A DNA stretch of 64,000 nucleotides. Origin: Tricharina praecox. Lineage: Eukaryota. Below the pieces are notes generated by a model. The model did no database searches. It was not told the DNA's origin and saw only the letters and a list, made by a program, of their open reading frames with translations. The stretch lies in NCBI RefSeq assembly GCF_024521635.1, contig NW_026250410.1:1178001-1242000 (forward strand), written 5' to 3'. The position numbers and the translations under genes are program-made. Of the stretch, positions 2,471 through 56,400 are shown one piece after another (position 1 is the first letter of the stretch; each line of letters starts with the position of its first letter).

Positions 2471-5400
2471 AAACGGAAGAAAAAATTCTATAACCAGACA
2501 GCTGGAGCTGGCAGGACGTCCCTATATAATTATTGTATCCTCGTCCGCCGTCACGGAAGCGCCGCGTTGTGTCGAGCGCCTCACGCCTCAATTCGCCGTC
2601 CACATCTCTATCTACTATATCCTATCTATGCATTCGGCGACTGACCCCCCTCCCCCCCGCGCGTGCTCCCACAGGGCGACAGGTCGGCCGGCGCCCACTC
2701 TGAGTGGGTGGGTGCAGGTGCCGCGGACCGAGCCGCCACTACGGTAGGTAGCTAATCACTGTCCCCGAGATATGTACGCCGGCGCGCCGAAGGTGAGTTG
2801 CTCGTACGTAACGGAAACTGCGGTCCCGGGGTGGTGGGGTGTGGCGGATGCGCACCAGCCACGGCTAGGTAAGTGCACGGCATCTGTGGCACAGCCCGCG
2901 CCGGTGACACGTTGTTTTCAGGTAAACCACAGCAACGATGGAAATCCGTGGTCAGCCCGTCGGCCCGCCGAAAGAAAAGTGATGGAGGTGGGTATTGAAA
3001 ATAATCCGCGGTAAATCATGTCATCGCCCATCCCCCGCCCCCGCCCCCCAGCCATAATTGGGTATGTATGTTTTGGCTTTCTGTAATGCGATATCCAGAA
3101 TCCACAATACTGGTGAAGATGGGGGGCGGCCCCAAAATCACTACAGTGGTTGATCGTGTGATCAACTTTACAAATCTGCAACTTGGATCTTCGGGGAGAA
3201 GTGTGGGGAGGAGTCGAGTTTTTTCCGTGATGCCGGGGGGTCTCCCTCTCTTTCTCGTTTTTTTCCGCCGGAAATTTCCGGGACGCCGGCCACGCTGTTT
3301 TTCGCTGTGTGACGGAATACGGTACTAGTTATAGAGTATCCCCTTCGTTCATCGACGGCTCGCCGGACGGTAATTTCTCAGGATATTTCCGTGAAATTAC
3401 GACTGTGGCCGAGAATTTTGAGGTCTCGGGGCGGGTGGGCGGGTACTACGAGGGTGGACGAAGCAGAAGCAGAAGCAAGGGATCATTCTCATACATAGTC
3501 TTCTACTATTCTACAGCGCCGGCATTGCACTTCCCACTTCAGTCTGAGCAATCTGAGCAATCTGAAGCCGCTGCTGTCCACGAACAAACGAAAAATGCGA
3601 AGGCTGTCACACACGCGACCAGAAGTGATGTGACATGTTGGGATATTTAGGATGGAATTGATGGCGCGGTAACCGTCCCCAACTTCCCACTTCCCCATTA
3701 TTGCATTGCATTGAGAGATCAATTCATAGCATATCACCCCACGTGAGTGCTATACTATACTACACTATAGATACAACTAGCGAGCACTCAGCCCCGCCGA
3801 CCACTGGTTATCTGGTACCGTATCTGAAATTCGAACACGTAAACCGGGCGGGCCTCTGACAGATTATCCAAGTACACTTGTGTGAAGGGTTAGGCTCAAA
3901 CGGCAACTGGTTAAAAACCGACAGACTTGACGCACCAGCACCAACACCAGCACCAATACCAGCACCAGCACCGTGACCCACAAGCCATGGTAACTCCCCT
4001 AGGTATATGTATGTACCACAGCCCGCTCAATAACACCATGGCCCGCGGCTAGTAACTTCTGGACGAAACCCACGTAGAGTATCTAACGTACCTACGGAAC
4101 TCCTATATACATGTCCAGATGTCATTCCGGTTCCTCAGCAGAGCCGATTTCACACCACCTTATAGTCCAGCAACTCGAATCTCTTGCTGCCAGACAAATT
4201 TCACGGACGAGATGAGCGAAGCCAGAGTAGTGGTAGTTAACAACGATGCCAAAATTCAAACGCCACAACCACAGCCACAGCAGCCACACTCCACAGTGCC
4301 ACAGTGCCACACTCCACACTCCACACACTGGGTAGTAGGTACCTCGGTTGGCAAGTTGCAGCGAGTTGCAACAACCACCACCAGCCACCTGAGGATTTGG
4401 CTAAGGATTTGGTGTGGGGGGGGCTTGTGATTTAGCGTCAGTATGTATGCATATCAAGTACCTATGTATGCATATCATAGTAGTATCATATAGACATGCG
4501 AGCAGGACGCCACCATGTAACTAACATTGTGCAATGGGCATCGCACCCCACAGTCGAGTATGTAGGCACCTACTCTAGTCACGCGGCTGGAATTGAAATC
4601 GAAAACACGTGGAAGCCGACGCACACGGGCAACGGGGAAAAGCAGCCCTGCCGAAGCCGTGTCGGTCTGGCCGGGTGTCCGTCTGTTCGGTGTTCGGTCC
4701 GCTGTTCGGGATCATGTCTAATCAATCGGACGAAACGCTTTCTGCTTGCAGTCCAGGTATCACCGGGTTAACAGTGAACTCCCGTGGATGGGCTGGGCGG
4801 AGAGCAATATGGAACCCACATCGAGCTCACGGCCAGCAGTTGGAGACAGTGAGTGCAAACAGCTATAATCTGATAAGGTCGAATGCTATGAGACAAAAAC
4901 AAAAACAAAAAATCAGTGGCTCCCGTGTGCTCCTGATCGTTGGAAATGCGCCACCTTCCGCTTGTCTGCCTGCGAGTAGCTCAGCGTGAACGGCCCTCAA
5001 ACCCTCACCCCCCCCCCCACACACCACCACCACCACCGCTGCCGTCGACTTGAACTCATTGCAGAGTGACGTCCACTGCTCCCACTTCCGCCATTTGCAG
5101 GTTATGAGCTTTTACACAGGTAATAATTCAGCTACGGTCATAGAACCATGAACACACGGCTTCCCGTCCGCTCAGCCCTAGTTAAGCATGGTATCGCCAG
5201 GTTAGTACTGCAGTGGGTGACCATGCGGGAATCCCTGGTACCGTAGTTTTTTTCCCTCCCTTAATTTTTTTTGTTTTATCATACTCTTATTACACCTTCT
5301 TTTTTCCCCGGGTTGGGGTTCTGTTCCCAGTGTTTATGGTGTTAGGCACCTCACATGTGTGGTCAGTGATGTAATATCTCACTCGTTGCTTAGTCGCTTA

Positions 5401-11333: not shown

Positions 11334-12080
11334 ATGTCCATCTCCCTGCCGCCACGACCAACGGCCACCACCTCCCCCCCGACGGCAGCGGAACACTATG
11401 CCGCGCTCTCGGCCCTGCACACACACTACCGGGCCCTCGTCGCCGCCGAGCGCGACACCATGGTGCGCGAGCGCCAGCTGTGGGAGGACGAGCGGAAGCT
11501 CTACGTGCGGCGGATAGAAGAGCTGGAAGCCTCGACGACGACTGCCGGCCCGCCGCCACCCGCTCCCACCCAGCCCGTCGAGTGGTCGCCACCTGCCCAC
11601 CAGCCCCCAACGCGGGACTGGGCTCCACCACCGTACATCGCCGCCGCCGCCGCGGCTACGATCGCCGGGTCACAACAGCAGCAACAGCAGCAGGAGAACT
11701 CACGCCCCGTGCCGCCCGCACCGCAACCGCCGCCGCCGCCTTCACAACCCGCCGCCACGACCAACAACAGCAACGCCAACAACAACGCCACCTCAAAACC
11801 GGTCCTAGCCCTCGACGAAGACGACGAGGACGACGAGATCTCGCCGGAGGAGATGGCGCAGCTGCTGCGCGAGGCGACACGGATCGTGTATCCCATCAGC
11901 CATGCGCGGCCGCGGGGCCGGAGTCTGGCGGAGCCGGCACACGGCGGCGCGGCTAGGGGTCGCCAGCCAAAACCGCATCATGAGAGTGAGCCCGAGGAGG
12001 GCAGCGGCGAGGAGGAGGTCGAGCTTAAGCTCAAGAAGACGAGTAATTTTGGGATGGACTTTGGGAAGTGGCGGTATTGA
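11334..12080 (+). CDS. Hypothetical fungal protein, 248 aa, with N-terminal coiled coil and C-terminal LKLKKTSNFG..FG motif
   Basis: GCCATG start, coiled coil (ERDTMVRERQLWEDERKLYVRRIEELE), P/Q-rich linker, coding codon bias. The C-terminal motif resembles one I recall from uncharacterised ascomycete proteins. Confidence 0.8.
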   Translation: MSISLPPRPTATTSPPTAAEHYAALSALHTHYRALVAAERDTMVRERQLWEDERKLYVRRIEELEASTTTAGPPPPAPTQPVEWSPPAHQPPTRDWAPPPYIAAAAAATIAGSQQQQQQQENSRPVPPAPQPPPPPSQPAATTNNSNANNNATSKPVLALDEDDEDDEISPEEMAQLLREATRIVYPISHARPRGRSLAEPAHGGAARGRQPKPHHESEPEEGSGEEEVELKLKKTSNFGMDFGKWRY

Positions 12081-13962
12081 TGGGGTTGTATGGTTATGGG
12101 GGACTGTGGGATTATTGCAAGCGAGCACGCTTCTTCTTTTTTTTCTCTTCTGATTTGAGTTTCATTTGGAAAGCTGGAAGTTGGAAAGTTGGAAAGGTCG
12201 ACGAATTCCGCTCTTGTTTGATTTCGTTGCGTTTTGTGTTATGATGCATGCGTGCGTGCATGCGTGCGTGCGTGTCTGTGAGTTACCGAGTTACCGTTAT
12301 TGAATATACCTGGCGCGATGATACCTTGAGACAAGACGAGACTCGAGGCGAGACTCGATGTGTGGCGTGTGGTGTGCGAAGTGTGGCGTGGTGTGTGGCT
12401 TGTGGTGTGTGGTGTGTGGATTGTGGCGTGCGATGTGCAAAGTGCGAAGTGCTCGCGGGCCGGTGGAGTGCTTGCTGCTGCAGCGGCGGCGGCGGGGAGA
12501 TGGATACATGGTAAGTGCCGCCGACTATCCGCCTGTCTGCTGACTTTCTCGGAGGCCTCGGAAGTGGTGGGGGGTTCACCGAGGAACCGACACGACTCAG
12601 GTACTCTACTTTCCGCTGCAAATACGACGATATCTATGCAAGAGCGGGTGCAAGAGCGGATGCGAAAGCGATGACTATACCGGTAGCACTCCAGATTCGA
12701 AACTTCAATCACCAGCCGAAGAGAATCGCTCCACTCGGTAACGGTAACAACCCGCACACGGCGAACGAGTGAGGGATACGAGTGAGGAATAGGTAAGGAA
12801 GAGTCACACCGGAGCAGCCACCTACGGGAGGCAGGGGCGGATAGGATAGAATGGGACATGATCGAGTGTATGTACATAACCAAATACTTTGAAAACTCTC
12901 ACCAAATCTCACGGTCGAATGGAAGAGAAAAGAATGAGAATGAAAGCGCAGGATTGGATGTGATTCCGGAGTTGGCTTTCGTATGTGTATAAGATGTACC
13001 TACTCGTGACCCGAATCCAAAGCTCCGGCGGTCAGTCCCGAGAGTCCTGAGTGACAAGCTATACGTGAGTAGCCCGCGCCCTGCTGTAGGTACTCTACTC
13101 TACATGTCGTCTACATGTCGTCCACATGTCGTCTACAAGTCTACCGGTACGATGTAGTCCACCAGTACAATACAATCGCAGTAGACCTAAAGCCCGTACA
13201 CAAACGGGTACATACCGGTACCATACTGGTAGAGCTGGATGGAGTTGGCTGGCGGAAGTACCTAGAGTAACTAGAGTAGAGCTGCTCTGCTCTGCTTGTG
13301 ATATCGTGATATCAAGTTACCTATGCGCCTCCATCGGTCCGCCGAACTGGGTACATATGTACTATTATAAGGAACTCCCGCTCCCGGTCCCGCTCCCGCA
13401 CTCGTCCGGTTCGTGATGATGTGTGTATCATAGTTGATCGAAAGGTGCGGGATAGAGCGGCGGGATAGAGCGGCGGGAAAGAGCGGCGAGTCTTCGGTAC
13501 CGGTGTGCGATGTAGGATGTAGGATACCCACCGGTACCTACTCTAGGCAATGCGGGGCACCTTGGTACCTACCGGCACAATATTCTGGCAGAGTTGGCTG
13601 GTAGTGACGAGTTCGGGGGAGATCTTTAAGGTTATATAGACCCCCTCCCTCCTGCAAGGCCCACCACTCGCTCAGCTGTCCCCGACCATGTGCGCGGAGT
13701 GCCGAAGTCTGGGCATGATGAATAACTAATCGCGATTCACGATGTACGGTACGATAGACGATATGATACATACGGCAGCCTGCGGGTAGATTGTGGCTAC
13801 AAAAGTTTCGCCTACTCTACTCCACTCTACTCAGCTCTACATACTCAGTAATATACTCAGCTCTCCTCGCTCTCTTCAGTACTCCACATAACTACTCTGC
13901 TCAGTTAAACAGTTCAGGCGCGCCGTGGCAGGCAGCGGCAGGCAGCGTTTAGTTATATAGCA

Positions 13963-14038
13963 GTGGTGGTGGTGGTGGTGGTGGTGGTGGTGGTGGTGGT
14001 GGTGGTGGTGGTGGTGGTGGTGGTGGTGGTGGTGGTGG
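13963..14038. repeat. (GGT) microsatellite, about 25 copies
   Basis: Read directly. Confidence 0.95.
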
Positions 14039-14749
14039 CGCAACTGACCGCCCGCGCTGACAACCCGTTACCTGCCAGCCCTGCCAACCTAACAACATGA
14101 CATCACTCGGAACTCCGATGCACGGCCACGGATTCATCAGCAATTACCTCTGCCACTCCGCGCCGCCCCACGCCTTTCAGGCTTCCCCCCCCCCACAAAG
14201 TCCCCGGGCGGGCGCAAAGCCCCCAGGCACACAATGACCCCGGCCGCAAAAAGTCCCCGGAGTAATATCAATTAAGGAATACAAGGAACGCAGGGAATGT
14301 AAGGAGGACGTACAGCAACACCGTTACTCCGGCGTCAACGCCGTCGGCGGGAGTGCTCCAACGGGGTGTCTCCGCACCGCCGCGCACGATCGGGGTGCAG
14401 AGTTGTTCCGAGCGGGCCAATTAACCAGCTAGTCACGTACCAATAATGCCATCCATACTACCATCCAGCATAGGTGTTAGGAGTTAGGTAGCCTGAAGGT
14501 AGAAGATGATGGAAGCCTAACGATGTGGGGATGGGTGGGTGGATGCAACTTTTGACGACGGAACCGCGGGTTCGTGTGGCCAAAAAGTCGTGATAAATAG
14601 CAAAGTTTTCCTTCCTCTTCTTTTTTTTTTCATCATCAGCAGCTCATCCACTCCACCGCATCCACTCCACACACACATACCAATTCCCAATCCCAACACC
14701 ACCAACACCACCACACACAACCACAACCACACAACCCCCCACAACAAAA

Positions 14750-15259
14750 ATGACCACCATCACCGTCCCCAACGACTACGGGTAACTCCCCTCCTCCCTC
14801 GCCCCTCCCCCTCTTACCGCCGCTAACCCCGTCCGCAGCTACGTCCTCGGCGTCCTCATCCTGACTGGCATCGTGAACCAATACCAAGGCTTCCTCGTCG
14901 GCAGCGAGCGCAGGCGAGCAAACGTTGCGTACCCGGCAGCATACGCCTCCAACAAGGAGGCGGAGACGGACATTGCGAAGTACCGCTTCAACTGCGCGCA
15001 GCGCGCCCACCAGAACTACCTCGAGAACCTGCCGACCATGATCGTCACCGCGGCGATCGGCGGGCTGACGTACCCCGTTGCGAGCGCGGCGCTGGGCGCC
15101 CTCTGGTTGGCGGGCAGAGTCGTCTATGCTAAGGGATACATTGCTAGCACTATCGAGCAGAAGGGCAGTGGGAGGTATAAGGGCGTCTGGTACATCCTGG
15201 GTCAGCTGGGACTCCTGGGAACCGCTGGGTACACGGTTTATTCCATGGTTATGGCTTAG
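14750..15259 (+). CDS. MAPEG family microsomal glutathione S-transferase 3-like, 150 aa; join(14750..14781,14839..15259)
   Basis: MTTITVPNDYG|YVLGV..., 57-nt GT..GCTAAC..CAG intron, signature FNCAQRAHQNYLE, 'GRVVYAKGY', 'RYKG'. Confidence 0.95.
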
Positions 15260-16824
15260 GTGCGGGTTTGCTGTCTGGCTTTGTTGTGCTTGCTTGCTTG
15301 CTTGCTTGATGGTCCGTCGCGCGGGGTTGGAGGTTGGGGTGTAGGTTATGTACTACCTAGATGAGAGGGCGGCCGAGGGATGAAAGAATAGTTTCTCTCC
15401 AAAATTTTGAACTGTGTGCGCGCGTGATGGGGTGCGGTTTATATATATATGTGTGTGAACGCATTGTGGATGGGGATTGTGGATTATGCAACCGACGTGG
15501 GGTTGTTGCGCCATCGATCTGCCGCCACCACCACCACCACCACCACCACCCCCACCACCACCCCCACCACCACCACTCCATAGTAAATACAAACCTCGTT
15601 CATAAGGCTGTAGAGTACGTACTTCCGGTAGGTACTTACTCAGGTACTTGCGTACTTGGGCACTTATGTATCTGGGCATCTACTCTCGTTACTCTGGAGT
15701 AGGTACTGTGTAAGTACCGGTCGGTACCTCGCAGTGCCCCGCATTGCCTAGACTCTAGAGTAGGTACCGGTAGGTATCCTACATCCTACATATCTACAAA
15801 CATCGCACACCGGTGGAGTACCGGTACCGGTACCGGTGGAGGTAGGTATGCTGCCGGTATGCTAATCGGAATAAAGGCGCTCCACAAGACTCGCCGCCCT
15901 TTCGTGCCGGAGGCCCGGAGGCCCGGAGCGGGAGTTATGTACATAATAGGTAGTAGTTCGGCGAGACTAATGGCGGTCGATATCACGAGCAGGTGTACAG
16001 TGTACTCAACTCTAGGTATCAGATGTATGTACATGGAGGTACCCACCTGGAGTACTCAGTAGCCATCGTCTGAATCTCCCGTGGAACTTGGGAGACTGTG
16101 GCCAACTGAGTACCTACGGATCGTGGGGCATTCTCTGCATGGTGGTGAGCTGCGGGAAGGGGAAAGTAACTGCGGGAACTTCGAAGACGAAGGAGAAAAC
16201 GGAAATGGAAAAAAGGAGACAGGAGATCCAGTTGCACAGTGACAGAGCACATATCGGACCGGAAAGTTGAAGGTTCGGTTTGGATCGTTGTTTATCCGCG
16301 AGGTAAGGTGCGAAGGAAGGGATTGTGATTTGGGGCGAGGAGTGCGGTTCAAAGTTCAATCGAATACCTACCATGATGCCGTGATGGAGATACGGTATAC
16401 ATGAATCTGCCCGAGTACCTACACCTACACCGCCCCTCCACTCTAGCCGCAGCACATCTCTACTCTCAGACCTCGACCGTTCATGAGGAGAATGGATCGA
16501 CGCCGGGATCACCGCTGGTCAATGGTTGATCGTCAGCATCATCTAATCTAATCTTTGATCATCAGATCAGATCCCTCCTCTACGTCTTGGAACCTTGGAG
16601 GCGACCGGTTTCTTTCTTGCGCAGCAGCGGCGATTTCCACTGCCAGTCCCCCCACTCAGACTCAGCACTCTGCACTCCTCAACAGTCTGGGACACGCTCC
16701 GAGACTTTGCGGAGCGCTCGGACTTTACTATACTGGTAACTCACTAGAGTGTATGCGACGTGCGTAGTACGTGTATGTATGGTACGGTACGGTACATCTC
16801 GTAAAGATCGACGAAGATGATGAG

Positions 16825-16868
16825 GAAGAAGAAGAAGAAGAAGAAGAAGAAGAAGAAGAAGAAGAAGA
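16825..16868. repeat. (GAA)n microsatellite
   Basis: Read directly. Confidence 0.95.
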
Positions 16869-17503
16869 GGAGGAATAAGACAAGCAGATGAAGCTGCAAT
16901 GAGGAAGAGCACGAGCAGGACGAGGAGAAGGAAGCTTCCGCTACCATCCACGATGCGGGGCGGTTGCGACTCGCGATTTGCGGAGAAGTGGCCTGGCATT
17001 GCTCTCTACCTGAGACTGACATTCCCGGTCCTCACTGCCCAAGCTCGGAGGAGGAGAAGGATCAGGACGGGGACGAGTGGTGAATCGTGAATGGTGTGGT
17101 GATGGCAACGGCTGATATTATTTTTGACAACTCATCCATCCATCCACCCTGGCGCCATGCACAGAAGGTTTCAGCGGCTCCGGAATGCAGCTTGCGCGGT
17201 GGCCACGGTCGTCCTCATTGCTCGAGGCTCATGGCTCTGGTGGCCCCTCATATGTGCGGCCATTTACCACGCGTGCTGCTCCAATGAACACGGCGGGCGA
17301 AGGCGCCTCTCTCGACTCGAATCTGCTTCACTCCACCGTGCTGGCGATGCCACTGGCCATGTGTCTGCTCTGGGCAGTTACTCTGCTCCATGGGATGGCA
17401 GGCACCTCATCATCATCCTCATCGCCACCTGGCCAGCTCCCCCTCCCCGGCAAAGAAAATTCACCGTGCATACTCTACGGACGCACGACTGCTACGTATG
17501 CAC

Positions 17504-17580
17504 TTGCTTGCCTGCTTGCTTGCCTGCTTGCTTGCCTGCTTGCTTGCTTGCTTGCTTGCTTCTTGCCTGCTTGCTTCTTG
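17504..17580. repeat. Imperfect (TTGC/CTGC)n microsatellite
   Basis: Read directly. Confidence 0.9.
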
Positions 17581-18653
17581 CCCTATCACTCCGTTCCCCG
17601 AATTGTCCACTCATCTTTGATCGATCAATCAATCCTCTCTCCACCTCTCTCACTACTCTAGCCATCGAGTCTCGTGCGGGGGGCGTGACCACCGACCCGA
17701 ACCGAACAAACGAGATCGCGATCCCCATCTCTCGTCCGCCTTCCAGCCACCACCTGGCACCTACCACCTACCACCTTCTCACTTACCCACTCACCCATTA
17801 CCCGACCCAACCCAACCCCTCCCACGCTTACGACTTTATGACGATGCATCTCTAGCGATAACTTTCGATATCGACTTCTATACCAAGTATTTTCACAGAC
17901 ACCGTGGTCTTGACGGCCGAACCGAACCGAACGACCTGACTACCGAGAAAGGAAAGAAAAAACAAAAAGCGAGCCGTTCGTTACCAGCCGATCCGAACCC
18001 GGTAAGTCACGGTGATCGATATTGAGCCTCCTCTCTTCCTCTCTCTCTCCCCGCGAGGCTGGGCTGGGATGAAAGCCGGCGACGAATCATCGCATAGCGG
18101 CCGTTACCAACTCGAATCGGTGCACTCACCACCACTACCACCGCCACACGGCGACCTGAGCGGAGGCTGCGAAGAAGATCACGGCTGTCATCGAGGGGCT
18201 AAACTCCTGTGAGGTACGCTTGGGGGAGGAGGAGGAGGGAGGGGAAACGGGACGCTCGGGTCGGGACCGAGGCAGAGGTGGAGGAGGAGGAGCATTGCGG
18301 GAAAGAGAGTGCGGAAAGCAGCAGCAGCCCAACAGCGGAGGTGGACACATCATCGTCGATAGTACCGAAAGCAAAAAAAGCAGACAGAACATCACCGTCG
18401 AGAGTCCCGCCACCCCTCTCGCTACATACTCCAACGGCTACGGTCTGTATGAGAGCCCTCTCCTTCTGCCTTCTGCTCTCTGCCCTGCTTTGTGTCCTGC
18501 TCTCCGTGCGCCTCCTCCTTCTGCTCTCTGCCCTGCTTTGTGCCCTGCTCTCCGTGCGCCTCCTCCTCCTTTTCTCCTCTTCTCCTCCGCCTCGGGCCTC
18601 GATCCCTCACGGCCTTTGACGCTACAGTCGCCTGGCTGGTGTCACTCCACGAT

Positions 18654-19116: not shown

Positions 19117-21990
19117 ATGTGCTTTCCAGCTCCACGAAGTCGTCCACCGCAACCGTCGCCTTCGAGACACCACCATGCCGAGAAGGACAAGTTTCGATCG
19201 GGCTCCTCTTCGGGCTCGGCCACCGATGCATCCTCCCCCGATATCCGCAAGCGCGACGTCCACCGATCGGCTTCCTCGGCCAACAACGAAGACCTTCCCG
19301 TCGGTCGCATAGCCACGGCCCGCTCCGGACCGGGCTCCTCGCATTCGAGATATCCTCCGTCATCGCAGCCGTCGAGTCGCCGGAGATCGAGTCGACGACA
19401 AGAGAGCGTAGGTAGTGATGGTGGAGGTGGAGGGGGCCGACCGCGAGCGCCATCGGCGAGGAAGTCATCATCGAGGAAAGGCAGCGTTCCGCCGAGCCCG
19501 GCTATGAACAAAGACTTGACCCACCAATTATCCGGGATGACGCCGCGAGCGAAGCAGGTGCCGATCATAAAACGGACGCCCGCCGTTTCCACGCAGACCA
19601 CCCCGCGAATCGGCATGTCGAAGAACCCGACACCATCCGGGTCGCCGAAGAAGGGCACGGGTTCGAAGGCGTTCAGCTCGACTTCTTCGGGAAAACTTTC
19701 CGTCGCAACCGCCGATGCCTCTTCCCTCGCGGCTTCCACTTCGCCTCTTTTGAGACCCGGCGGGAGTAGTAGAGGGAGTAGTGACGCTGGCAGCAGTCGC
19801 TCCGGAAGTGTTTCGCGAGAGCGCAGCAAGCGGTCGGGCAGGACCAAAGCGATGGATATGGGTGGGTTGGGTGCGAAAGGGGGAGTGATTGGGCTGGGCA
19901 TAATGACGGAGGCGGCGCCAAAGAAGAGGAAGAGTAAACGGTCCTCTTCTGTCAAGGCGCCCGTGCGCTCACTGACTACTACTACTACCGCGACAGTCAT
20001 CACGACGATCGCATTCCCACCTCCACCACCTCCGACCATTACCATACACGCGGCCAGCTTACCTAAGGTGTCTGCTACAGCAGCGCCCGTCTCCATTGCA
20101 GCACCTCGACCCACACCGGCCCCTTTAAAGGTTCCAGCTCCAGCACCAGCACCTGCGCCAGCACCAGCATCAATTCCACCTCCGGTCTCGGTTCCAGCTC
20201 CAGCACTAGTCCCACCTCCGGCTTCGGCTCCAGCTCCACCACCTGCGACCGCGCCTGGACCTGTACCTGTACCGGCGGCAGCAACCCCGGCTGTATACGT
20301 ATACACCCCCGTCGTCGTTCGGCCGCCGCAGGTCGCAGCTGCACCGGCCAAAGATGTCGTTACCGCGCCCACCATCGCTCCCGCCATCGCTTCCGCACCC
20401 CCGCAAAGACCGCCAATGGTACGGAAGAGTGCCTACATCACAGTTCCCGTTCCGCAACTCAGGCGAAAAGATTCGTCGGCGTCATTGAATTCGCAGTATT
20501 CGATTTCATCAGTTTCTACGGATTCGACGGTCGAGGCCCCGGCACCGGAGCTGACAAGGAGGAGGCCTAGCACTTATGCCTATAGTCCGAAGAAGCCCGC
20601 GCCGGTTCCACATACACCGAAGATGATCCTTCCGGCTACGGAAGAGTCGAGTTCGGAAGAGGAATCGGACGAGGATTCCGAAGATGATGACTCGGACGAG
20701 AGTTGGGAAGAGACGACCGAGCAGCCACCACCACCACCAGCAGCGCCGAAGATGGCGCCACCGAGGGAACGGACAGCTGCACCCAGCAAGATTCCAACAG
20801 TGTACGCTACGAGACGGCGCGAACCGGTGAAGGAAAGGTATCAACCACCTGCGCCCGAGCGTGAGCCTGAGTTAGAGCCCCTGCCACCGGCCAAAAAGTA
20901 CTCGCCAACGCGAGACGCGCGCCCTTCGTCGCGAGCCTCGGTGGAAACTGTGGACTATGCTACTTTTGTTGCCGAGAGCCAGCTGAAGAAGAAGCAGCTG
21001 AGGCTGAAGTCACTCCTACCAGATATGAACGACTCTCCCCTCGTCAAAGCGAATGCTCGACGATCGGCGATTCCGGTCAGCGCTAAAGTTGCCATGTTCT
21101 CTACGCCCGTCTCTCGGGAAGCAAAGGCTCCAGCCCCGGCCAGGCCCAACCTGAGAAGACTCAACACACCGTTGGAGGATGCAGAATATCAAGCCCGCCA
21201 ACAGGCTCTCGCTCTGGTCAAAGCCGAGGTGGAATCCGATGACGAGGTCGAAGAAGAACGACCGGAACACCAAGAATCGGATGAGGAATCGGATGCAAGC
21301 ACCGTCAATTCCTCATTGGCCCCTGCTCCGGATCGGGAGGTTCCTCGTCGGCAGGTCCAAAGCAGCGCTCTACGTCGGCTGAAGAAAGAGGAGCACAAGA
21401 AGCCGTACGACAGTGAAGCATCCTCGATGCTTTCCTGCCGCATGGATGGGAACATGCCCGAGGCCCCGGCGCCCCCGCCTTTTGCGCCCAGTCCTCCGCC
21501 GGTGCACAAACGGCGACGCGGGTCCACCAAGACGGATTACTCGCACCTGCCGCCGCAGGGCGCTGCCGAGAGTTGGTACCCCGAGACCGGCGCCAGTCCG
21601 TGGGAGGTTGAGCAGGATTGGCAGAACGCGGGCGAGATCTGGGAGGAGGATCCATACCTGCCCGAAGCGCCGAGCCCGCCTCCCGGAAGTGACTTTATGC
21701 CGCATCAGGAGAATCGGGAGATGCCGCCGCAGATGCCGCCTCGACGAAGACGGCGCCGCGCACCGGCCGAGCACATGCCGACTCACATTGAGCACATGAG
21801 TCCCCATCCTGAGCACAGAAGCCCACATCCTGTACATCGCACACCGCAGCCTGCGCAGCGCACACCGCAGCCTGCTCACCGAACGCCGCAACCTGCTCAC
21901 CGAACTCCGCAGCCCGCGTACAGCAACGTACAGCAGCCAGGCAGTCACCGGGAGAGCGGATATTACGGTTACGTGCATCCCGGATATTGA
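19117..21990 (+). CDS. Hypothetical Ser/Pro/Ala-rich, probably disordered protein, 957 aa
   Basis: 2.9-kb uninterrupted ORF with acidic tracts and C-terminal HRTPQPA repeats, followed by a T-rich 3' region. No domain recognised. Confidence 0.75.
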   Translation: MCFPAPRSRPPQPSPSRHHHAEKDKFRSGSSSGSATDASSPDIRKRDVHRSASSANNEDLPVGRIATARSGPGSSHSRYPPSSQPSSRRRSSRRQESVGSDGGGGGGRPRAPSARKSSSRKGSVPPSPAMNKDLTHQLSGMTPRAKQVPIIKRTPAVSTQTTPRIGMSKNPTPSGSPKKGTGSKAFSSTSSGKLSVATADASSLAASTSPLLRPGGSSRGSSDAGSSRSGSVSRERSKRSGRTKAMDMGGLGAKGGVIGLGIMTEAAPKKRKSKRSSSVKAPVRSLTTTTTATVITTIAFPPPPPPTITIHAASLPKVSATAAPVSIAAPRPTPAPLKVPAPAPAPAPAPASIPPPVSVPAPALVPPPASAPAPPPATAPGPVPVPAAATPAVYVYTPVVVRPPQVAAAPAKDVVTAPTIAPAIASAPPQRPPMVRKSAYITVPVPQLRRKDSSASLNSQYSISSVSTDSTVEAPAPELTRRRPSTYAYSPKKPAPVPHTPKMILPATEESSSEEESDEDSEDDDSDESWEETTEQPPPPPAAPKMAPPRERTAAPSKIPTVYATRRREPVKERYQPPAPEREPELEPLPPAKKYSPTRDARPSSRASVETVDYATFVAESQLKKKQLRLKSLLPDMNDSPLVKANARRSAIPVSAKVAMFSTPVSREAKAPAPARPNLRRLNTPLEDAEYQARQQALALVKAEVESDDEVEEERPEHQESDEESDASTVNSSLAPAPDREVPRRQVQSSALRRLKKEEHKKPYDSEASSMLSCRMDGNMPEAPAPPPFAPSPPPVHKRRRGSTKTDYSHLPPQGAAESWYPETGASPWEVEQDWQNAGEIWEEDPYLPEAPSPPPGSDFMPHQENREMPPQMPPRRRRRRAPAEHMPTHIEHMSPHPEHRSPHPVHRTPQPAQRTPQPAHRTPQPAHRTPQPAYSNVQQPGSHRESGYYGYVHPGY

Positions 21991-26804: not shown

Positions 26805-27004
26805 GATGTTGATGTTGATGTTGATGTTGATGTTGATGTTGATGTTGATGTTGATGTTGATGTTGATGTTGATGTTGATGTTGATGTTGATGTTGATGTT
26901 GATGTTGATGTTGATGTTGATGTTGATGTTGATGTTGATGTTGATGTTGATGTTGATGTTGATGTTGATGTTGATGTTGATGTTGATGTTGATGTTGATG
27001 TTGA
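26805..27004. repeat. Perfect (GATGTT) hexanucleotide microsatellite, about 33 copies
   Basis: Read directly. Confidence 0.97.
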
Positions 27005-30500: not shown

Positions 30501-33500
30501 ACCGCAGGTGTGAGCTGGTTAGAGAACCGGGTACTATCGTCGAGGCTATGATCTCGCTGGACGTGGATGGTAGTGTGCTGCAGGACTTTCAGGATTCGGA
30601 ATTCTTGAGCCCAGCAGAGTTGAAGAAGGTGTTGACCGTGAGGAAGCACCGGTATTCTTTGCGGGCACAGAAGATCTTTGTCCATCGGGATAAAGACACC
30701 AGTTGCAATCCTTGCGCCAGTCCAGCCATCGATCGAGACCGCGTCACACTTTCCAAGTCGTGGGAGCTAAGTCGATATCTCGGATCGACTGTGACTGCAT
30801 TCCTCGTCGGATGGGTCACACTGCTTGTCGTCCTATTTGTGCGTGCGAAGGATGAAGGATTTGCTGTTCCCGCCGGTACCTACCTCTACGACGCGTATGC
30901 ATCCTACGCACCGACCATCGCCGCCACCTCGTTAGAGTCATTCTTGGTCCTCCTCACCTCGCAAGTCGCCCTCCTCTTCCCTTTCAAGCAGCTCAGACGG
31001 GGGAATGCCAGTGCCAAGAACTCCATATCCGTCAACTACGACCGGAGACCGCCACATTTGCAGGTTGTCAATGGCATACGAACCCGGAATCCGCTGCTCA
31101 CCGTCTTGAGCACGAGTATCCTGCTGGCTAATGTCCTTGCCGTTGCGGTCGGCGGGTTGTTCCACAAGAGCACCGTGGAGGTTCGGTATCCGGCAAAGGA
31201 ACTTGCTCTGCTGGGATCGCTGGAGACGCTTGAGGCATATAATGCTTCGTCGGAATCATTGATCAAGGGGGACTGGGACATTCCGTACGAGTCGTTCTAC
31301 GTTGCGGCAGGCGACCTAATGGGCTTCCGACGGCCACCGTGGACTACCGATGAGCTGTTCTACATGCCGTTCACCGACTCTCGCAACCAGACCGACGACC
31401 GCGGCGCTAAGTACATCACGGAAACCTTCGGGATGGGCGTATCCATGAAGTGCGAGGAGGTCCCTCCGGAGTTGCTCAGCACGTGGACAGCACTCAGCCT
31501 CCGTGCCAACGAGACGGCCACCGCCAGCAAGCACCGCAGCTTCTCGTTCACCACTTTCGTCAATAGAACGATGCATTTTGGTACTTCCCGCTACGACACG
31601 TTGCTTTTTCCGGACATCGGTGCGTACGCCAGAGACAACATGTTCGAGCAGGAAGAGAAGTTCGTCAAAACGTTCTTTCCTGGGGAAATCATCAACGGGA
31701 CCAAGAAGTACCTGTATGTCGAGTATGGTCCTAACCCGTACCCGGAGACACTCGCGGACAAGCAGGACTGGGAGTTCTCTGCATTCTGGCATCAATACGA
31801 ATACGACCCGAACCGACGAGGCACGATCAACGACTCGTTCTGGGAATCCAATGTCACCGTCAATAAGAATTTCTTCGACAGCGACATCCAGTATCTCAAC
31901 AAAACAGTGGAGGGGCCATCGATGTTCATTCTTTCCCGCGTCGGTCTCCGCTGCCAGCCCACTCCCCATCTAGTCCGCTCCACGCTCACCTCCGACCTCT
32001 CGGGCCACATCATCAGCCACACTGACACCTCGCTCCCCTTCACCTCGTCACCCACCACCTCCAACCAACCCACCGGCCTCCCAGGCCTCGTTTCCATTTT
32101 CATGCGTACCGTCATGCCGCGCGTAACCGCCAAGTACTCCGCCCACAACAGCGACAAGCTCTCTCCCTCCTCCTCGCCCGGCAGCTGGCTATCCCTCCTC
32201 CTCTCCGACGAAGCGCGCGCGCTTACTCCAGGGTTCACATTGTACACGCACCCCGCCCAGTCCGCGCGCGCAATGGAAGCGGTGCTCCAGCGCACCTTCG
32301 CTATCTTCCTGCAGCTGAACGCCGACACAATCTTTCGCCCTCCCAGCGCACTCCTGTCCGTCGGCACGAGGAACGGTACGCTGCTCAGAGCGGAGGAGCG
32401 CGTGCTGATCCGCCCGCTGGCACTGAGAATTGCAGTCGCCATACTGCTGGCGTTTGTCCCAGCGATTGTCGCGGCGTATGTCTGCCTCGCCGATGCGAGC
32501 CTTGTCCATCAGCCTACGACGCTGGCGGGGCTGTTTTCGGCGGTTTATGCGTGTGATTTTGATGCGGGCGCTGTTGCGGGGGATAAGAGGGGTAAGAGGG
32601 GTAAGAGAGGGAAAGAGGGTTATGTGTACGGGTATGGGTGGTTTGTGGGCAGGGATGGGAGGAGGCATGTTGGCGTTGCGAAGGAGCCATTGGGGGACGG
32701 TAGGTTGGACGTACCGTAGTCTGGGATTGGAGCATGCGGGGAATACTACGGGATCTGTGGGTTTTATGGGTTTTATTAGTGGAGAGAGAGGGAAAGGCGG
32801 ATGTGGTTAGAAACCACGCAGGAATAAGATACGGCCACGGAATTCTGGTTAGCGGTATGGAGGAGGGATCATGATAGGGAGGGCCCATAACGATACTCTA
32901 GCCAGACAAGCTCACCGACAGCCTACAGGCCACACAGGGACACGTGCGTGGGAGTAGGTCGGTGGGAGGGAGGGGAAGGAATAGATATGGAGGACGATGA
33001 AAAGAAGCTCGAAAGTGCCACATTACATGTTCCTCAGGGCACATGGGGACCACCCGTATGCTGCCGTGGTCGACAAGCCCGTAGGCTGTTGCTGTTGCAC
33101 TTACTAATGCTGGCGCGCCATGGTTATAATCTGCATCACCCTTCCTCCAGTACGGAAAAAAACCTGCGCGGCCAAGCGGTCACGCACCCGGTAGAGTTAG
33201 CATGGACACTGCAGCGGTCTATCTATCGGGGTTTCCAAGCCACCCCACCAGGGGTGGCGAAGGTTTTTGGTTCGAGCCAGGGTTCGGCTTTCGTTTTATT
33301 TAAGCGGTGTGTTTACTTACAGCCTAGGCACTCGTAGATCATGGAAATATAGTCACGGTTTGGCATCGTCACGGGTTATCACTCTATCACTCGCTGCGTG
33401 AGATCGCGTGCCTAGCTAGACCCTGCTCTTGTACGTCCGAACTGGGATCATTCGTTTCCCAGCTGTTTGCGTTCCAATTCGGTTCCGTGGTTCATCTAGC

Positions 33501-48867: not shown

Positions 48868-50088
48868 TTAAAGATAGAAAGCTAGCCACACTTTCAGCCT
48901 CCCGGAGGGGTAGACCCAACACCACCCGCAAGACACACACCCGTTGTTGCCATACACCGGAGCATGATATCCATAGCCCGGGTCTCGGTACCCACCATTC
49001 TGCTGCTGCTGCTGCTGCCAGCCCTGCGGGTACACCGGCGAAGCTGGAACCATTGCCGCGGTCCCGTACGGCAGGCCCTTCCTGTCCGCAGAGTGTTCCG
49101 CCGCGGCGGCCAGGAGCATAGCATCGGCATTGACATTCTCGGCAATAGTCCAGACCCTAACGCCGACGCCGCGGGCCTCGACCTTCTCCACGAGCTCCAG
49201 GATCGCCTTCCACGCCGCCGCATTCGCAACCGCCTTCTTCCCGCGCGCGCGCGTCCACCCATTCGCCTTCCACGTGTACACGCAGCTGGACAGCGCATGC
49301 ATCACGCGGCGCGAATCCGTCACGAGCACCACGTTCCGTGCGGTGGGCCACTCGCCGCCGCCGTCCGCCCCCGCGCCCTCGTGCTGCAGCAGCGACAGCA
49401 CCTGCGCCAGTACCTGCTCTGTGGCGTAGAGCTCGGCGTGCAGGCGCGTGCGCGTGCGCTCGTTCGCGCCGTGCGGGACCACGCCGGAGAGGTTGCGCGC
49501 GCTGCCCGGCCCGTGGAAGATCCCGTAGGTGAGGGTGTTCGTCGCGGCGTTCAAACGGCCCACTACGCTGACGATGATGCAGGACGGGTCGATGTACGTG
49601 TCTAGGCGGCTGTGCGCCGCGGATCGGAACTTGGATTTGTGTGGGAAGCTGGGGGTCGCCGGCGTCCAGAGTGTGTGTGAGAAGCCGGTGCACGGGCTGT
49701 AGGAGGTTACTACGGACGGGTCCACGATCGTCTGCGGGAAGCCGAGAAGTCGCGAGGTGAATGTGCGGGTGTACTTTTCGGGGTAGGAGACGGACCCAGG
49801 GGAGGTGTGGTGCCGGTAGTGGGTGGCCGATAGTGGCGGCGAGGTTCCGCTGGTGTCGGAGGATGAGGAGGAGATGGTTGAGGCATCGGAGTCCACCAGC
49901 GATGGCGGAGCGTGTGGTGAGTCCGGCGGCGTGGCGGTCTCTGCAATGTCCGAGTAGATGGAGTGTTCCTCCGTGACGGTATCCGCCATGTCCGCGTACA
50001 GGGAGTGTTCCTCCGTGTAGTCATCTTCAATGTTGTTTACACGGTATCGTGAAAGCGGAGGAGCAGATGAAGGTCTGATTGGTGACAT
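48868..50088 (-). CDS. RNase H-like domain protein, probably catalytically inactive, 406 aa; 3' end may be spliced
   Basis: YGIFHGPGSARNLSG, HAELYA, VVLVTDS, WKANGW..GKKAVAN, N.DA..LA motifs of fungal RNase H1-like proteins. Confidence 0.85.
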   Translation of the reverse strand: MSPIRPSSAPPLSRYRVNNIEDDYTEEHSLYADMADTVTEEHSIYSDIAETATPPDSPHAPPSLVDSDASTISSSSSDTSGTSPPLSATHYRHHTSPGSVSYPEKYTRTFTSRLLGFPQTIVDPSVVTSYSPCTGFSHTLWTPATPSFPHKSKFRSAAHSRLDTYIDPSCIIVSVVGRLNAATNTLTYGIFHGPGSARNLSGVVPHGANERTRTRLHAELYATEQVLAQVLSLLQHEGAGADGGGEWPTARNVVLVTDSRRVMHALSSCVYTWKANGWTRARGKKAVANAAAWKAILELVEKVEARGVGVRVWTIAENVNADAMLLAAAAEHSADRKGLPYGTAAMVPASPVYPQGWQQQQQQNGGYRDPGYGYHAPVYGNNGCVSCGWCWVYPSGRLKVWLAFYL

Positions 50089-52649: not shown

Positions 52650-52932
52650 GCGTCTGGTGGCTTGTGGCGCTCCTGGTTGTCTCCTAGTCGTGCGATATAA
52701 ACGGAAGCTATTGACGTCTGAAGCGACATATGATAGCACGGTGAAGGAGAGAAGAAGAGCGAGAATAATAGCCACCGCCGTCTCGCGGCTTGCGGCTTGC
52801 GGCTTGCAGCGCTCCACCTCCCAGTTGCAATATAAACGGAAGATACTGAATTCTGAGGCGTTGCCGCTATCTACCTATGATAGCAAGGTGAAGGAGAGAT
52901 GTCAAGAGCGAGAATAATAGCCACCGCCGTCT
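52650..52932. repeat. Diverged tandem duplication, unit about 135-150 nt, 2 copies
   Basis: ATATAAACGGAAG..TATGATAGCA.GGTGAAGGAGAGA..AAGAGCGAGAATAATAGCCACCGCCGTCT occurs twice, ending at 52783 and 52932. Confidence 0.9.
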
Positions 52933-53429: not shown

Positions 53430-56400
53430 CAAGTCCACTGTCCACAAACTTTTTGCTTTCGACTTTCGGCCTAGCCAGCCAGCCCGCCGGCTGCAAACTA
53501 CTCTAGTTGGACGTTGTGAACGCCCTCGTTTCCCCGCTCTCGTTTCCCCCGCTTCTTGCAAGCCCGCAACCACAAGCCCTCGCCGACAGCGAACGGCACA
53601 CAGGACGCCCATTCCGTCTGGAGGACCGGTGATTAAACGTTAGGCCATGCCTAATCGGACGCCAGGCGACGAGAATAAGCCTTTTCTTATTGGTAGACGC
53701 CCCCACACGCCACGCGCCACGTCCGGCCATTCCTTCCTTCATCCCTAACCATCACAGACGTTGCCGGCCCGCGCACCCCCCCTCAACAGACTACAGACTA
53801 CAGCCAGACCCTTGTAGATGTTTTCGAGGCCATCTCCACCATTTTTCCGAATCACATGCGTCGTCTTCCGCAAGCAGGTGGATGCCTGCCCGCCTGTCTA
53901 TCTGCCTGCCTGTCTAGACGCAGCTCGAGCATCGCCTGCATCGACAGTGGTCAACGCAAAACGCAAAACGCCGTTCGCGTCGGGATCAATGCTTCTGGCT
54001 CTGGTAATTCCCACGTCCTCCGGGGGAAATCACGTCCTCCGGGGGAAAGGAGAAAAAGGTCAAAATCCCCCACGAGATGAGATGAGATGTGTCTGCAATC
54101 GGCTGGTGAGAGGTGAGAGATGGGAGCCAAGAGGACTACGGCGATGCGGTGCGGGGCGCTTCTCTCGCATCCTGTCGCATCCGCGGCGGAATGTATGCAT
54201 GTACTATTACAGGTATAGCCGCGCTCTGGATACTGCTATGCAGTACGTACATACTATGAGCACACAAACGCTCTCGACGGACAAAAGTCCAGCTCGGCCG
54301 CTAACTATGTACTTACTTTTGGAATTTTAGTATATCCTAACCGGGCCTCTGGAGACTATGAGGAATCGAATTCGGAAATGGATGTATACTTCCATCCTTC
54401 GGGGTGAGGTCCCCTTCTACCAACTCCCTCGCAGTAGAGCTTAGGATTTACCGGTAGCGGTGAGCACTCAGTACCGTACCGTCACACACGAGGGCAAGTT
54501 CATGACCCCGAAAGACCGACTCTGCACCTTTATCACACTCAGAGCTGACGCAGCGAGGAGCCCCCCTCAGTCCTGTGGATCCAGCAGAAAAAGGCTCCGG
54601 CGCAAGGCAAAGCCCCAAGGTCTAAAGGGTGAGAGCGTGAGTGCGCATTTGGGAGAGTGGAAGCAGATGGACAGACAGCTACCATACGGTTCTCAATTAC
54701 CGGTACATATACGTCCGAAATTTGCTGCTTTTTTGCACTGCAATCATAGTATGGTGGGAATAATTGCCAGTGGCCTCTGACATGCTGGAACGATATTCCG
54801 AGTTTGGGGATGGTGGGCGCTGGGCAGCTGGGTGGAAGGGAAGGGAAAATACGAGGATGGAAGTGCCCGCATCGACTGTGCGCCCCAAGATCGAACACTG
54901 CACAAATGTGTCGTGTCGGTCGCCGAATTGAATTAGTGATTTTCTCTATCCTCAAGTCAGATGGACGGCAGATGCAGATGCAAAAGAGCCCAGACGAAAG
55001 CCCTCGCGTTAGCCTTTGCGCGAGTGAGAGGATGTGCAGTTAACGGCTGCTAGTTGGGTCACTGGGTGATATTCCATGAGATAGTGGCCTGTCGTCCACG
55101 GTCGACCGTGATGTTATCGTGTTGGAGCTAGAGTAGATAGAAGCCGGAGAAGTTGCAATCGTCGATGATAATATGTACTGGTATTGTACTCTGCTAAGTG
55201 GCGCTGTATATCCAGTCGAGTGGTTGTCGAGCGTTTTCGCTTCCCAAAATCGGCAAGCATAACTCAGCCCAGCATCCAGAATGTTTAGGGTTGCTGTAAG
55301 TTTAGCGTGCTTAGGTTTCTTAGCGCCGCAGAGCCGCTGTGCAACGTCAAAAAATCACGCCGATCTCCCAACAGGCGAGGGCGGTTTTCCACCGTTTGCG
55401 CAACAAGGACAACACTCATCCTCCGCCCATTGTTCCACCGCCAAACCTCAGCAAATCCACCCAGCGATGCGTTTACTGATAGGCGACGATGTCGGTCAAG
55501 CTAAGGGTATGAGCGCTCTTCTCGCCTCCACCATCCCCCAATCGCTACTCAATCCAGCTAACAACATATCGCGAATAGTGATCGAGACTTCTGAAGGGAT
55601 CGACACCACGCTTCCTTCGTCCGCGCGCGCAACGACTACTTCGTTCTTCCCGCCTTCTCGGACACGGCCAATCCAATATGCCCTGCGTGTGCGGTATATG
55701 GGTCGAGACGGCCTCGTAATTACCCACCCGCCACTCCCCCGATCAAATTCGAAATCTAACGTGACATTCCTTCCAAAGGTAGCAGTCCTCTCGAAAGGCG
55801 GACTCCTCCGCATCTTTGATCCCAGCTCGTCCCCCAGCAGCCCCGAAATCCTCTTCTCCTACACCCTCCAAGTCCCTGCCGAAACCAACACCGTCGCACT
55901 GGGCACCGACTCGGAACACGCCACGCTCTACGCCGCCACGGCAGAGGGAGTCGTCCTCTTTCTCGATCTGACCAGCGGCCACGAGCGGATCGTCCAAGTG
56001 CCCGGCCCCATCAGCACTTTCGGCGCATCACCCGATCTCACGGCAGTCGCCACCGGCGGAACCGGCAAGGACGTGGAAATCTACACTTGCGCTGCGAAGG
56101 GCGAATGGGCCTCCGCCTGGAAGGCGCGAAACGTCAAGCTCACACACCTCAAGCTCGAGGTGCCCGTGCACCCCAGCCAGATCCATTTCCTACCGGCGCA
56201 GCAGGGCACGTGGCGCATGGTGGTGGCGACCAACTACGGACACGTCAGGGTCTACGACACCGCCGTGTCGAGACGGCCGGTGTTTACCGCCGAGCCGTCG
56301 AAATCTGCCATCAAGGCGATGCGGATACACCCCGACTCGGAGATCCCGGATCCAGCGCTGCCGCTGGTGGCGACGAAGGGTCTGGAGGCTGAGAAGGCGT

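Follow-up and report, generated by a model that had tools for sequence, protein, structure and literature searches.

Inverted arms of unique DNA around a MAPEG gene in Tricharina praecox, the probable footprint of a one-gene inversion

Under the staggered-break model, non-repetitive sequence becomes doubled, in inverted orientation, at both ends of an inversion that separates species, and the inversion-associated duplications of Drosophila have a median length of 321 bp and an identity of about 88%, often being derived from one breakpoint region only (Ranz et al. 2007, PMC1885836). The arms of the Saccharomyces flip/flop (FF) region are 4 kb long, almost identical, gene-bearing and continually homogenised, and both orientations are found within species (Salzberg et al. 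2022, PMC9731477). In Dothideomycetes, simple repeats are statistically associated with the breakpoints of mesosyntenic inversions (Ohm et al. 2012, PMC3516569), and in yeast, imperfect arms of short inverted repeats are homogenised by template switching from one to the other, which is also able to flip the spacer (Abraham and Hazkani-Covo 2021, PMC8604942). Here, we describe a locus of Tricharina praecox in which a single gene is bracketed by mirror-image, non-coding arms of roughly 300 bp each. The locus lies in a stretch of 64,000 nucleotides (contig NW_026250410.1, positions 1,178,001 to 1,242,000), hereafter the window, from whose first letter all coordinates are counted.

Inverted arms around the MAPEG gene

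The left arm (13259..13575, plus strand) is unique non-coding DNA made up of an outer block (13259-13399), a middle block (13471-13494) and a core (13499-13575); its inverted partner, the right arm (15717..16018, minus strand), comprises the corresponding core (15717-15814), middle (15886-15909) and outer (15906-16018) blocks. An earlier note on this DNA had reported that 13542-13560 is the reverse complement of 15734-15752, that 13510-13546 matches 15755-15791 at 36/37 and that the similarity runs outward to about 13260/16018, and all three statements proved correct: the first match is 19/19, the longest exact match between the arms being 19 bp, the second is indeed 36/37, and exact 9-19-mers line up in a near-collinear antidiagonal between 13259/16018 and 13575/15767. 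In block shuffles, the scores of the outer part and of the core were each reached in 0/500 cases (p=0.002) and that of the middle block in 2/500 (p=0.006), and the DNA outside the arms (p=0.87) or inside them (p=0.75 and 0.43) is not alike. The description of the arms as near-identical holds locally, with 73/77 identical columns in the core (69 of 70 consecutive aligned columns), but not overall, since identity is 88% over 206 alignable columns when two unalignable inserts of ~70 bp are left out, and drops to 79% (255 columns) with the inserts included; the outer blocks agree at 108/129 columns, and the core itself contains 12-bp and 7-bp indels. (A MAFFT global alignment put the arms out of register and was left out of the results.)

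Two mundane sources of such similarity have to be considered, namely chance resemblance within GTAC-rich intergenic DNA and an assembly artefact. Self-complementary GTAC words are indeed frequent in the arms (16-27 per kb vs. 4.4 in the window). However, BLAST of the dust-masked window yields one inverted match at E<0.01, the arm pair (E=2.7e-14), which also has the highest inverted Smith-Waterman score, 106, among 3358 window pairs (mean 23, sd 4.8), and independent contigs reproduce both arms, those of X1 without substitutions over the covered part and those of X2 with few. Together with the block shuffles, these results rule out either source, leaving it a negligible probability, and confirm that the inverted arms around the MAPEG gene are genuine. 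The next-best inverted pairs in the window score 47-61, the value of 61 being found in windows with TG/CA-rich simple matches. The expression "best-preserved unit" in the earlier note implied further units of the kind; none was found in the window by BLAST, exact-match listing, Smith-Waterman or the comparison of flanks in ten targeted cases, whose best scores were 24-37.

Each of four diagnostic arm patterns, searched with up to 2-3 mismatches or gaps allowed, gave one forward and one reverse match in the 38-Mb genome, at the arms only. Hence, the arms are locus-specific, and the dispersed repeat (e.g., a MITE) that the earlier note had named as the refuting case can be set aside. It is also conceivable that two opposite-facing copies of a rare or extinct mobile element recombined and thereby flipped the gene, or that the unit as a whole represents the decayed remains of an element bounded by long terminal inverted repeats. 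A blank DNA search for arm copies is no proof of rarity, and the genome does hold such a case, at L111, where two ~430-bp copies, 89% identical and with terminal repeats of their own, flank an ORF. Nonetheless, we consider an element origin quite unlikely, given the two-arm specificity of the four patterns, the lack of any arm match with E below 0.005 in a sample of 73 further stretches (ten kb each, about 2% of the genome), and the enclosed gene being a single-copy syntenic orthologue; further, neither terminal inverted repeats within the arms (end-to-end scores 10-14) nor a convincing target-site duplication was found, the longest flanking direct repeat being 6 bp and ~14 bp off the arm ends. 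Among the 73 stretches, 7 contained an inverted match at least 500 bp apart and 12 a direct match, and no genome-wide pattern of arms like those described here was seen in this sample: L022, L111 and L156 match other sampled stretches, L103, L122, L141 and L152 are 22-35-bp pairs, and none of the four cases that were aligned (L022, L103, L111 and L122) resembles the MAPEG-flanking arms.

Orientation of the gene and its breakpoints

The gene enclosed by the arms (14750..15259, plus strand) encodes, as the earlier note had it, a MAPEG protein (microsomal glutathione S-transferase 3-like, 150 aa; PF01124, E=2e-24, 86.5 bits vs. a curated cut-off of 23.4). It consists of two exons (14750-14781 and 14839-15259) separated by a GT-AG intron (14782-14838), is intact, gives a single match in the genome, and is present as a spliced contig in run X3. 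Upstream, an element at 14097..14124 (plus strand) accompanies MAPEG in L024/L025 (27/29, E=6e-4), and a proximal block at 14560..14615 (plus strand) is common to the relative L023. The 3' flank at 15315..15400 (plus strand) shows weak similarity to its counterpart in L024 (p=0.02, uncorrected, in one out of 32 comparisons) and thus probably lies within the inverted segment. The neighbours, both on the plus strand and without a Pfam family, are gene A on the left (11334..12080, 248 aa) and gene B on the right (19117..21990, a 957-aa ORF), which served as the orientation reference for synteny. No Rfam match at E<=0.1 was found in 12000-17200 and no tRNA gene in the window.

The relatives available for comparison represent only two outgroup lineages, L024/L025 being one species and L026-L028 another, at 79% and 60% protein identity. 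In both lineages MAPEG is single-copy and in the same place but reversed relative to its neighbour, that is, divergent from gene B instead of in tandem with it as in the window, and the order A-MAPEG-B-ankyrin is retained in L026-L028. Therefore, the segment between the arms is inverted relative to both outgroup lineages. Gene B shows 79% amino acid identity between the window and L024, and 55% and 56% between each of these and L026; L024 being closer to the window than either is to L026, parsimony would place the flip on the window's branch. Gene A is a neighbour of MAPEG in L026-L028 as well, where it faces the other way with respect to gene B; given this further difference in orientation from L026, single-gene flips may be common in this lineage.

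Collinear anchors delimit the inverted segment. The upstream element at 14097-14124 travels with MAPEG, and a weak anchor at 16494..16514 (no strand assigned; E=0.045 in L024) and stronger ones from 17094 outward (17094-17174, 17432-17489, 17586-17725 and 18062-18102) remain with gene B, outside the inverted segment. The breakpoint intervals are accordingly 12080-14097 and 15260/15400-16494, 1-2 kb wide, and one arm lies inside each. The only bound on the left breakpoint is gene A, through L026, because L024/L025 do not extend to gene A; their 3' flank, too, is short, at about 580 bp.

The same intervals contain a second inverted pair, formed by a (GGT)n microsatellite of 24 perfect units (13963..14039, plus strand), a candidate second breakpoint, and its inner inverted partner, an imperfect (ACC)n tract (15522..15576, i.e., (GGT)n on the minus strand). 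Over 55 nt the two are ~95% complementary. Tracts of this kind are rare, 794 kb containing 9 of them, these two included. Ectopic recombination or microhomology repair between them could have inverted the gene, with the outer arms as a separate event or a by-product of repair, and every detected gene-linked anchor lies between the tracts. There is, however, no anchor between arm and tract for testing this scenario, which by itself does not account for the ~300 bp of unique DNA that is alike, in inverted form, outside the tracts; a second flip nested with the first would have returned the gene to its ancestral orientation, whereas its net state is inverted. We regard the tracts as an improbable origin.

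The inverted repeat itself was not detected at the relatives' loci (0/5 by self-BLAST), the best inverted score being at most 34 in L024, L026 and L027 vs. 106 in the window. Nor was a single copy of the arm found in the flanks of L024 (8 comparisons, all p>0.29; a distant relative with a short 3' flank); one weak match (L024 6848-6867 to window 16350-16331, 18/20, E=0.13) misfits a single clean flip. The arm divergence (JC 0.13) falls between the divergence among strains (16 SNPs listed in X2) and the fourfold-site distance to L024 (0.58-1.03), and hence the arms can be younger than the split from L024.

We favor the hypothesis, at a probability of roughly 0.55, that the arms are the footprint of a single in-place inversion of MAPEG in the window's lineage, since unique-DNA arms stand on both sides of the gene and within the two intervals where gene order switches sign relative to the relatives. 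Under this hypothesis, a segment of ~1.5-2.7 kb with the gene, its promoter and its 3' flank would have been excised by two breaks and rejoined in reverse; because one break was staggered, or a flank was copied during repair, ~300 bp of single-copy intergenic DNA would have been placed at both ends in opposite orientation. The two copies would later have decayed by substitutions, short tandem duplications and deletions, and a single patch of gene conversion may subsequently have covered the ~70-bp core.

Homogenisation and present-day orientation

Alternatively, in line with the homogenisation raised in the earlier note, the arms may be an older inverted repeat that gene conversion refreshes periodically and within which crossovers re-invert the gene, a slow flip-flop in which the core, the outer blocks and the microsatellite pair represent layers of different age of a formerly longer (500-800 bp) repeat. 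One argument is the clean core: its 69/70 identical columns give a permutation p of 0.005 (0.027 at 60 columns), it exceeds the outer blocks by Fisher's test (p=0.026, for a split chosen after looking), and with the inserts kept, 0/226 identity-matched simulations attain the observed 59/60. The rare (GGT)n pair placed symmetrically inside the arms and the left-arm base at site 15722 in X2 point the same way. However, the permutation p rises to 0.08-0.12 at 40-50 columns, 12-14% of the simulations that assume uniform decay at about 88% identity produce a 60-column window as good as the best one observed, the core carries two indels and its exact matches end at 19 bp, and no significant similarity was seen between the flanks of one microsatellite and those of the other (p=0.17 vs. 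406 control pairs from 29 tracts). The recent, patchy homogenisation that the note proposed is thus only suggestive (p 0.005-0.14 by test), and recurrent re-inversion appears doubtful.

Population contigs also argue against it. The contigs of X1 and X2, from two soil populations, run through the right arm in the same orientation as the reference, although contigs hide rare forms and break at microsatellites, and no strand-change joint was found in four runs, whose coverage is partial (the share of the arms seen in X3 and X4 is too small to be informative). The right-arm differences of X2 have no visible mirror on the left arm, which is partly covered there, a complete pair of arms being available only once, and co-varying polymorphisms are not supported. 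The orientation of 14047-15514 depends on the assembly, as neither microsatellite is bridged by an independent contig. In short, inversion of the enclosed gene is borne out between species, relative to two outgroup lineages, and is not supported for the present day. A live one-gene flip-flop, with conversion-refreshed arms or recombining inner GGT tracts and both orientations segregating in nature, seems unlikely; if it were true, MAPEG would alternately share or not share an upstream region with gene B. The locus is most likely an ordinary one-gene inversion scar rather than a genetic switch.

Comparison with known systems

The open-licence literature gave no description of such a single-gene inversion scar for this fungal class; the process is already known, and the MAPEG locus is a fresh example of it, a single-gene inversion in a Pezizomycete whose breakpoint DNA is still legible. 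The locus suggests that genes of these fungi can be reoriented one by one in a process that duplicates unique DNA in inverted form and involves no transposons, and it would carry greater weight if populations had both orientations or if arms as short as these evolved in concert.

Similar to the FF region as described in PMC9731477, the locus has an inverted repeat around genes in an ascomycete and an orientation that varies between genomes. However, its arms are far from kilobase-scale near-identity (0.3 kb, 88%) and non-coding, and within the species only the reference orientation is seen, across the right arm in X1 and X2. The template switching described in yeast (PMC8604942) is a candidate route to the clean arm core and to a two-base change in X2, although the case described there involves short repeats in coding DNA and the spacer at the MAPEG locus is 2.1 kb. 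As in the mesosyntenic inversions of Dothideomycetes, where local inversions shuffle gene orientation and simple repeats lie near breakpoints, there is a simple-repeat pair, (GGT)n, at this locus; duplicated unique arms are not part of the account in PMC3516569, as excerpted. The Drosophila cases (PMC1885836), for their part, are multi-gene inversions, as opposed to a single gene in a Pezizomycete whose ancestral single arm copy was not recovered from the L024 flanks, but the arms described here are non-repetitive, ~300 bp long and 88% identical, and in these respects they resemble the Drosophila staggered-break duplications.

Extent and uniqueness of the inverted arms

The gene at the center of this locus (14750-15259, +) encodes a 150-aa MAPEG protein (PF01124), the one MAPEG match returned by a protein search of the genome, and its single 57-nt intron was confirmed by a spliced contig of sequencing run X3 (14681-15404) that lies within the arms; this run also has low-depth contigs, RNA or DNA, on non-coding 12503-12854 and 13586-13910. 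The window sits in a 1.29-Mb contig of the 38.4-Mb genome (104 contigs), and its NSA1-like WD40 gene (55281-56867) has its best named relatives (58-65%) in Trichophaea, Sphaerosporella, and Pyronema, all Pyronemataceae (Pezizomycetes). A 406-aa ORF at 48871-50088 (-) that weakly matches RNase H (E=4e-6) is perhaps a retroelement remnant.

The MAPEG gene is flanked by inverted copies of non-coding DNA, the left arm at 13259-13575 and the right arm at 15717-16018, with an inner inverted pair of microsatellites, (GGT)n at 13963-14039 and (ACC)n at 15522-15576. The pairings proposed in an earlier note proved exact (13542-13560 vs. 15734-15752, 19/19; 13510-13546 vs. 15755-15791, 36/37), and the outward similarity it had traced to about 13260/16018 was borne out by exact blocks of 9-15 nt prolonging the antidiagonal to 13259/16018. 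Among 500 block shuffles, none reached the outer-part or the core score and two reached the middle-block score, and by the same test the arms showed no likeness beyond 13250/16045 (p=0.87) or inside 13580/15720 (p=0.75); the arm limits follow from the significant blocks inside and the lack of likeness outward or inward. Further, with the window dust-masked, the arm pair is the sole inverted BLAST match below E=0.01, and it has the top inverted score among 3358 window pairs; that it reflects chance or artefact is hardly credible. Arm identity is 181/206 columns (88%) with 13 internal gaps when two unalignable inserts of ~70 bp are excluded, or 79% of 255 columns when these are included. Several gaps resemble short tandem duplications, and differences of this kind also set runs X1 and X2 apart from the reference. 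Elsewhere in the window there is a 140-bp tandem duplication (52650-52932, 74% identity) and a (GATGTT)n tract of ~200 bp (26805-27000), and stretches nearby (L014-L017) hold many local direct duplications; short tandem duplication seems to be a common mutation in this region.

Alternatively, the arms might descend from a lost mobile element that inserted twice, and double insertion is seen in this genome: in stretch L111, two ~430-bp element copies (1348-1780 and 4778-5241), 89% identical and in opposite orientation, flank a cysteine-rich ORF. That element, which we take to be PIF/Harbinger-like, has sharp ends, terminal inverted repeats of its own, and a further match in stretch L117, whereas the arms have neither terminal repeats of their own nor a convincing target-site duplication. 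Each of four patterns drawn from the core, middle, and outer blocks matched the genome once forward and once in reverse, both times at the arms, with 0 control matches, which sets aside the multi-copy dispersed repeat (e.g., a MITE) that the earlier note had named as refuting its proposal. A DNA search with each arm returned its partner alone, blanks in such searches being no proof of rarity. Hence, we regard the lost-element origin as quite unlikely.

A distant inverted match occurred in 7/73 sampled ten-kb stretches, and a direct one in 12/73; the four inverted cases inspected were repeated elements or short terminal-type pairs and, as far as sampled, gene-flanking arms are not a genome-wide habit. 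Short inverted pairs (22-41 bp, 0.5-3.3 kb apart; L103 1953/5250, L122 3545/4245, L141 6806/7715, L152 6779/7430, L156 2450/3063) resemble the termini of non-autonomous DNA transposons. A short dispersed element (L022 5100-5259 and 9406-9524; window 33228-33272) occupies at least five sampled places, one copy holding a tRNA-like stretch, as judged by eye.

Orientation of the gene in relatives

A metagenome scan gave 228 loci that encode relatives, and six of the best 80 are close. L023, at 1 kb, does not reach far enough for synteny; L024 and L025 belong to one species (79% aa) and L026-L028 to another (60% aa). At each of the five informative loci the MAPEG gene is divergent from its right neighbour, gene B (19117-21990), whereas both are on the + strand in the window; an inversion of the enclosed gene, for which the earlier note had proposed a test, is seen between species. 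The order gene A (left neighbour), MAPEG, gene B, ankyrin gene is retained in L026-L028. Since gene B identity (window-L024 79%, window-L026 55%, L024-L026 56%) puts the window nearer L024 than L026, the state common to the latter two is ancestral by parsimony.

Non-coding anchor 14097-14124 travels with the MAPEG gene (E=6e-4), and 15315-15400 does so weakly (p=0.02, one of 32 comparisons). Anchor 16494-16514 stays with gene B (E=0.045), as do four blocks of greater strength, 17094 to 18102. These anchors place the left breakpoint between gene A and 14097 and the right one between the MAPEG 3' end and ~16494. Each interval contains one microsatellite, and equally one arm; recombination between the GGT tracts has, in our judgment, a slim chance of being the cause. 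Simple repeats close to fungal inversion breakpoints are already known (PMC3516569). One weak match of the L024 3' flank to 16331-16350 (E=0.13) counts against a single clean flip and is probably chance. No inverted repeat was seen in any of the five relative loci (three rechecked), of which L024/L025 end ~580 bp past the stop.

Gene A (11334-12080, +; 6800-7350 in L026-L028) keeps its place beside MAPEG yet, compared with L026-L028, is likewise reversed relative to gene B, and two adjacent genes thus differ in orientation with order kept; no arms were found around gene A or around any other gene tested. The NSA1-like gene lies ~4 kb past gene A in L026 (11150-12373) and ~43 kb in the window, which points to an additional, larger local rearrangement. 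Two genes that adjoin in this genome ~50 kb from MAPEG (L021 3113-5719) lie, in the more distant loci L029, L032, and L035, on either side of a MAPEG gene of 46% identity, an arrangement that suggests earlier movement of the gene within its neighbourhood.

Variation within the species and between the arms

Four of the five listed runs were compared with the window; X1 and X2 (a different strain) come from a single study, rare forms are lost from contigs, and neither microsatellite is bridged by any contig. X1 matches the reference without substitutions, one contig covering the entire right arm (15583-16062) and two the left arm save for a 15-bp gap, and X2 crosses the right arm in the reference orientation. 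Among the joints listed for the four runs none changes strand; their contigs stop short of bridging the microsatellites, with GGT-pair flips outside coverage. A live one-gene flip-flop appears unlikely. The X2 right arm bears the left-arm base at 15722 and two small indels within the outer block; its two-base change at 15750-15751 is uninformative on co-variation because a 7-bp insert of the right arm itself can accommodate it.

Of the patchy homogenisation proposed earlier, the cleaner core stood (73/77 vs. 108/129 in the remainder; Fisher p=0.026 for a split made post hoc). In uniform-decay simulations, 0/226 runs matched to 79% identity reached 59/60, whereas 12-14% of runs at ~88%, the fairer match, reached the observed best window. 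Mismatch permutation gave p=0.078, 0.12, 0.027, and 0.005 for 40-, 50-, 60-, and 70-column windows, and the core-vs-outer contrast is also inflated by misalignment in the slippage-rich outer block. One gene-conversion patch is plausible, and template switching (PMC8604942) is a possible route for local clean-up. An older repeat maintained by conversion and re-inverting the gene is rather doubtful. The JC divergence between the arms (0.13) is far under the distance to L024 (0.58 and 1.03, fourfold sites).

A probable case of a known process around a single gene

We favor, at a probability of roughly 0.55, a single inversion in place, accompanied by an inverted duplication of the unique DNA beside it and followed by decay. 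The arms, their uniqueness, the reversed gene, and the position of the arms inside the breakpoint intervals are observed; under this hypothesis the duplication would have arisen together with the inversion, presumably by staggered breaks, and the copies would later have decayed, with or without a single conversion patch.

In the open-licence literature on such systems and on Pyronemataceae inversions, neither this locus nor a fungal system of gene-flanking repeats like it was found described. We do not assign it to the FF-type flip/flop (PMC9731477), which has the long near-identical arms that the MAPEG locus lacks. Ranz et al. 2007 (PMC1885836) report inverted duplications at 17/29 inversions (median 321 bp, ~88% identity), and the MAPEG locus shares three of the four features of that class; on the fourth, a single ancestral copy, arm sequence was not found in the L024 flanks, the 3' one being ~580 bp long. 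The arm pair is real, locus-specific, and most likely accounted for by a known process, of which it represents a new, fairly clean example around a single gene.
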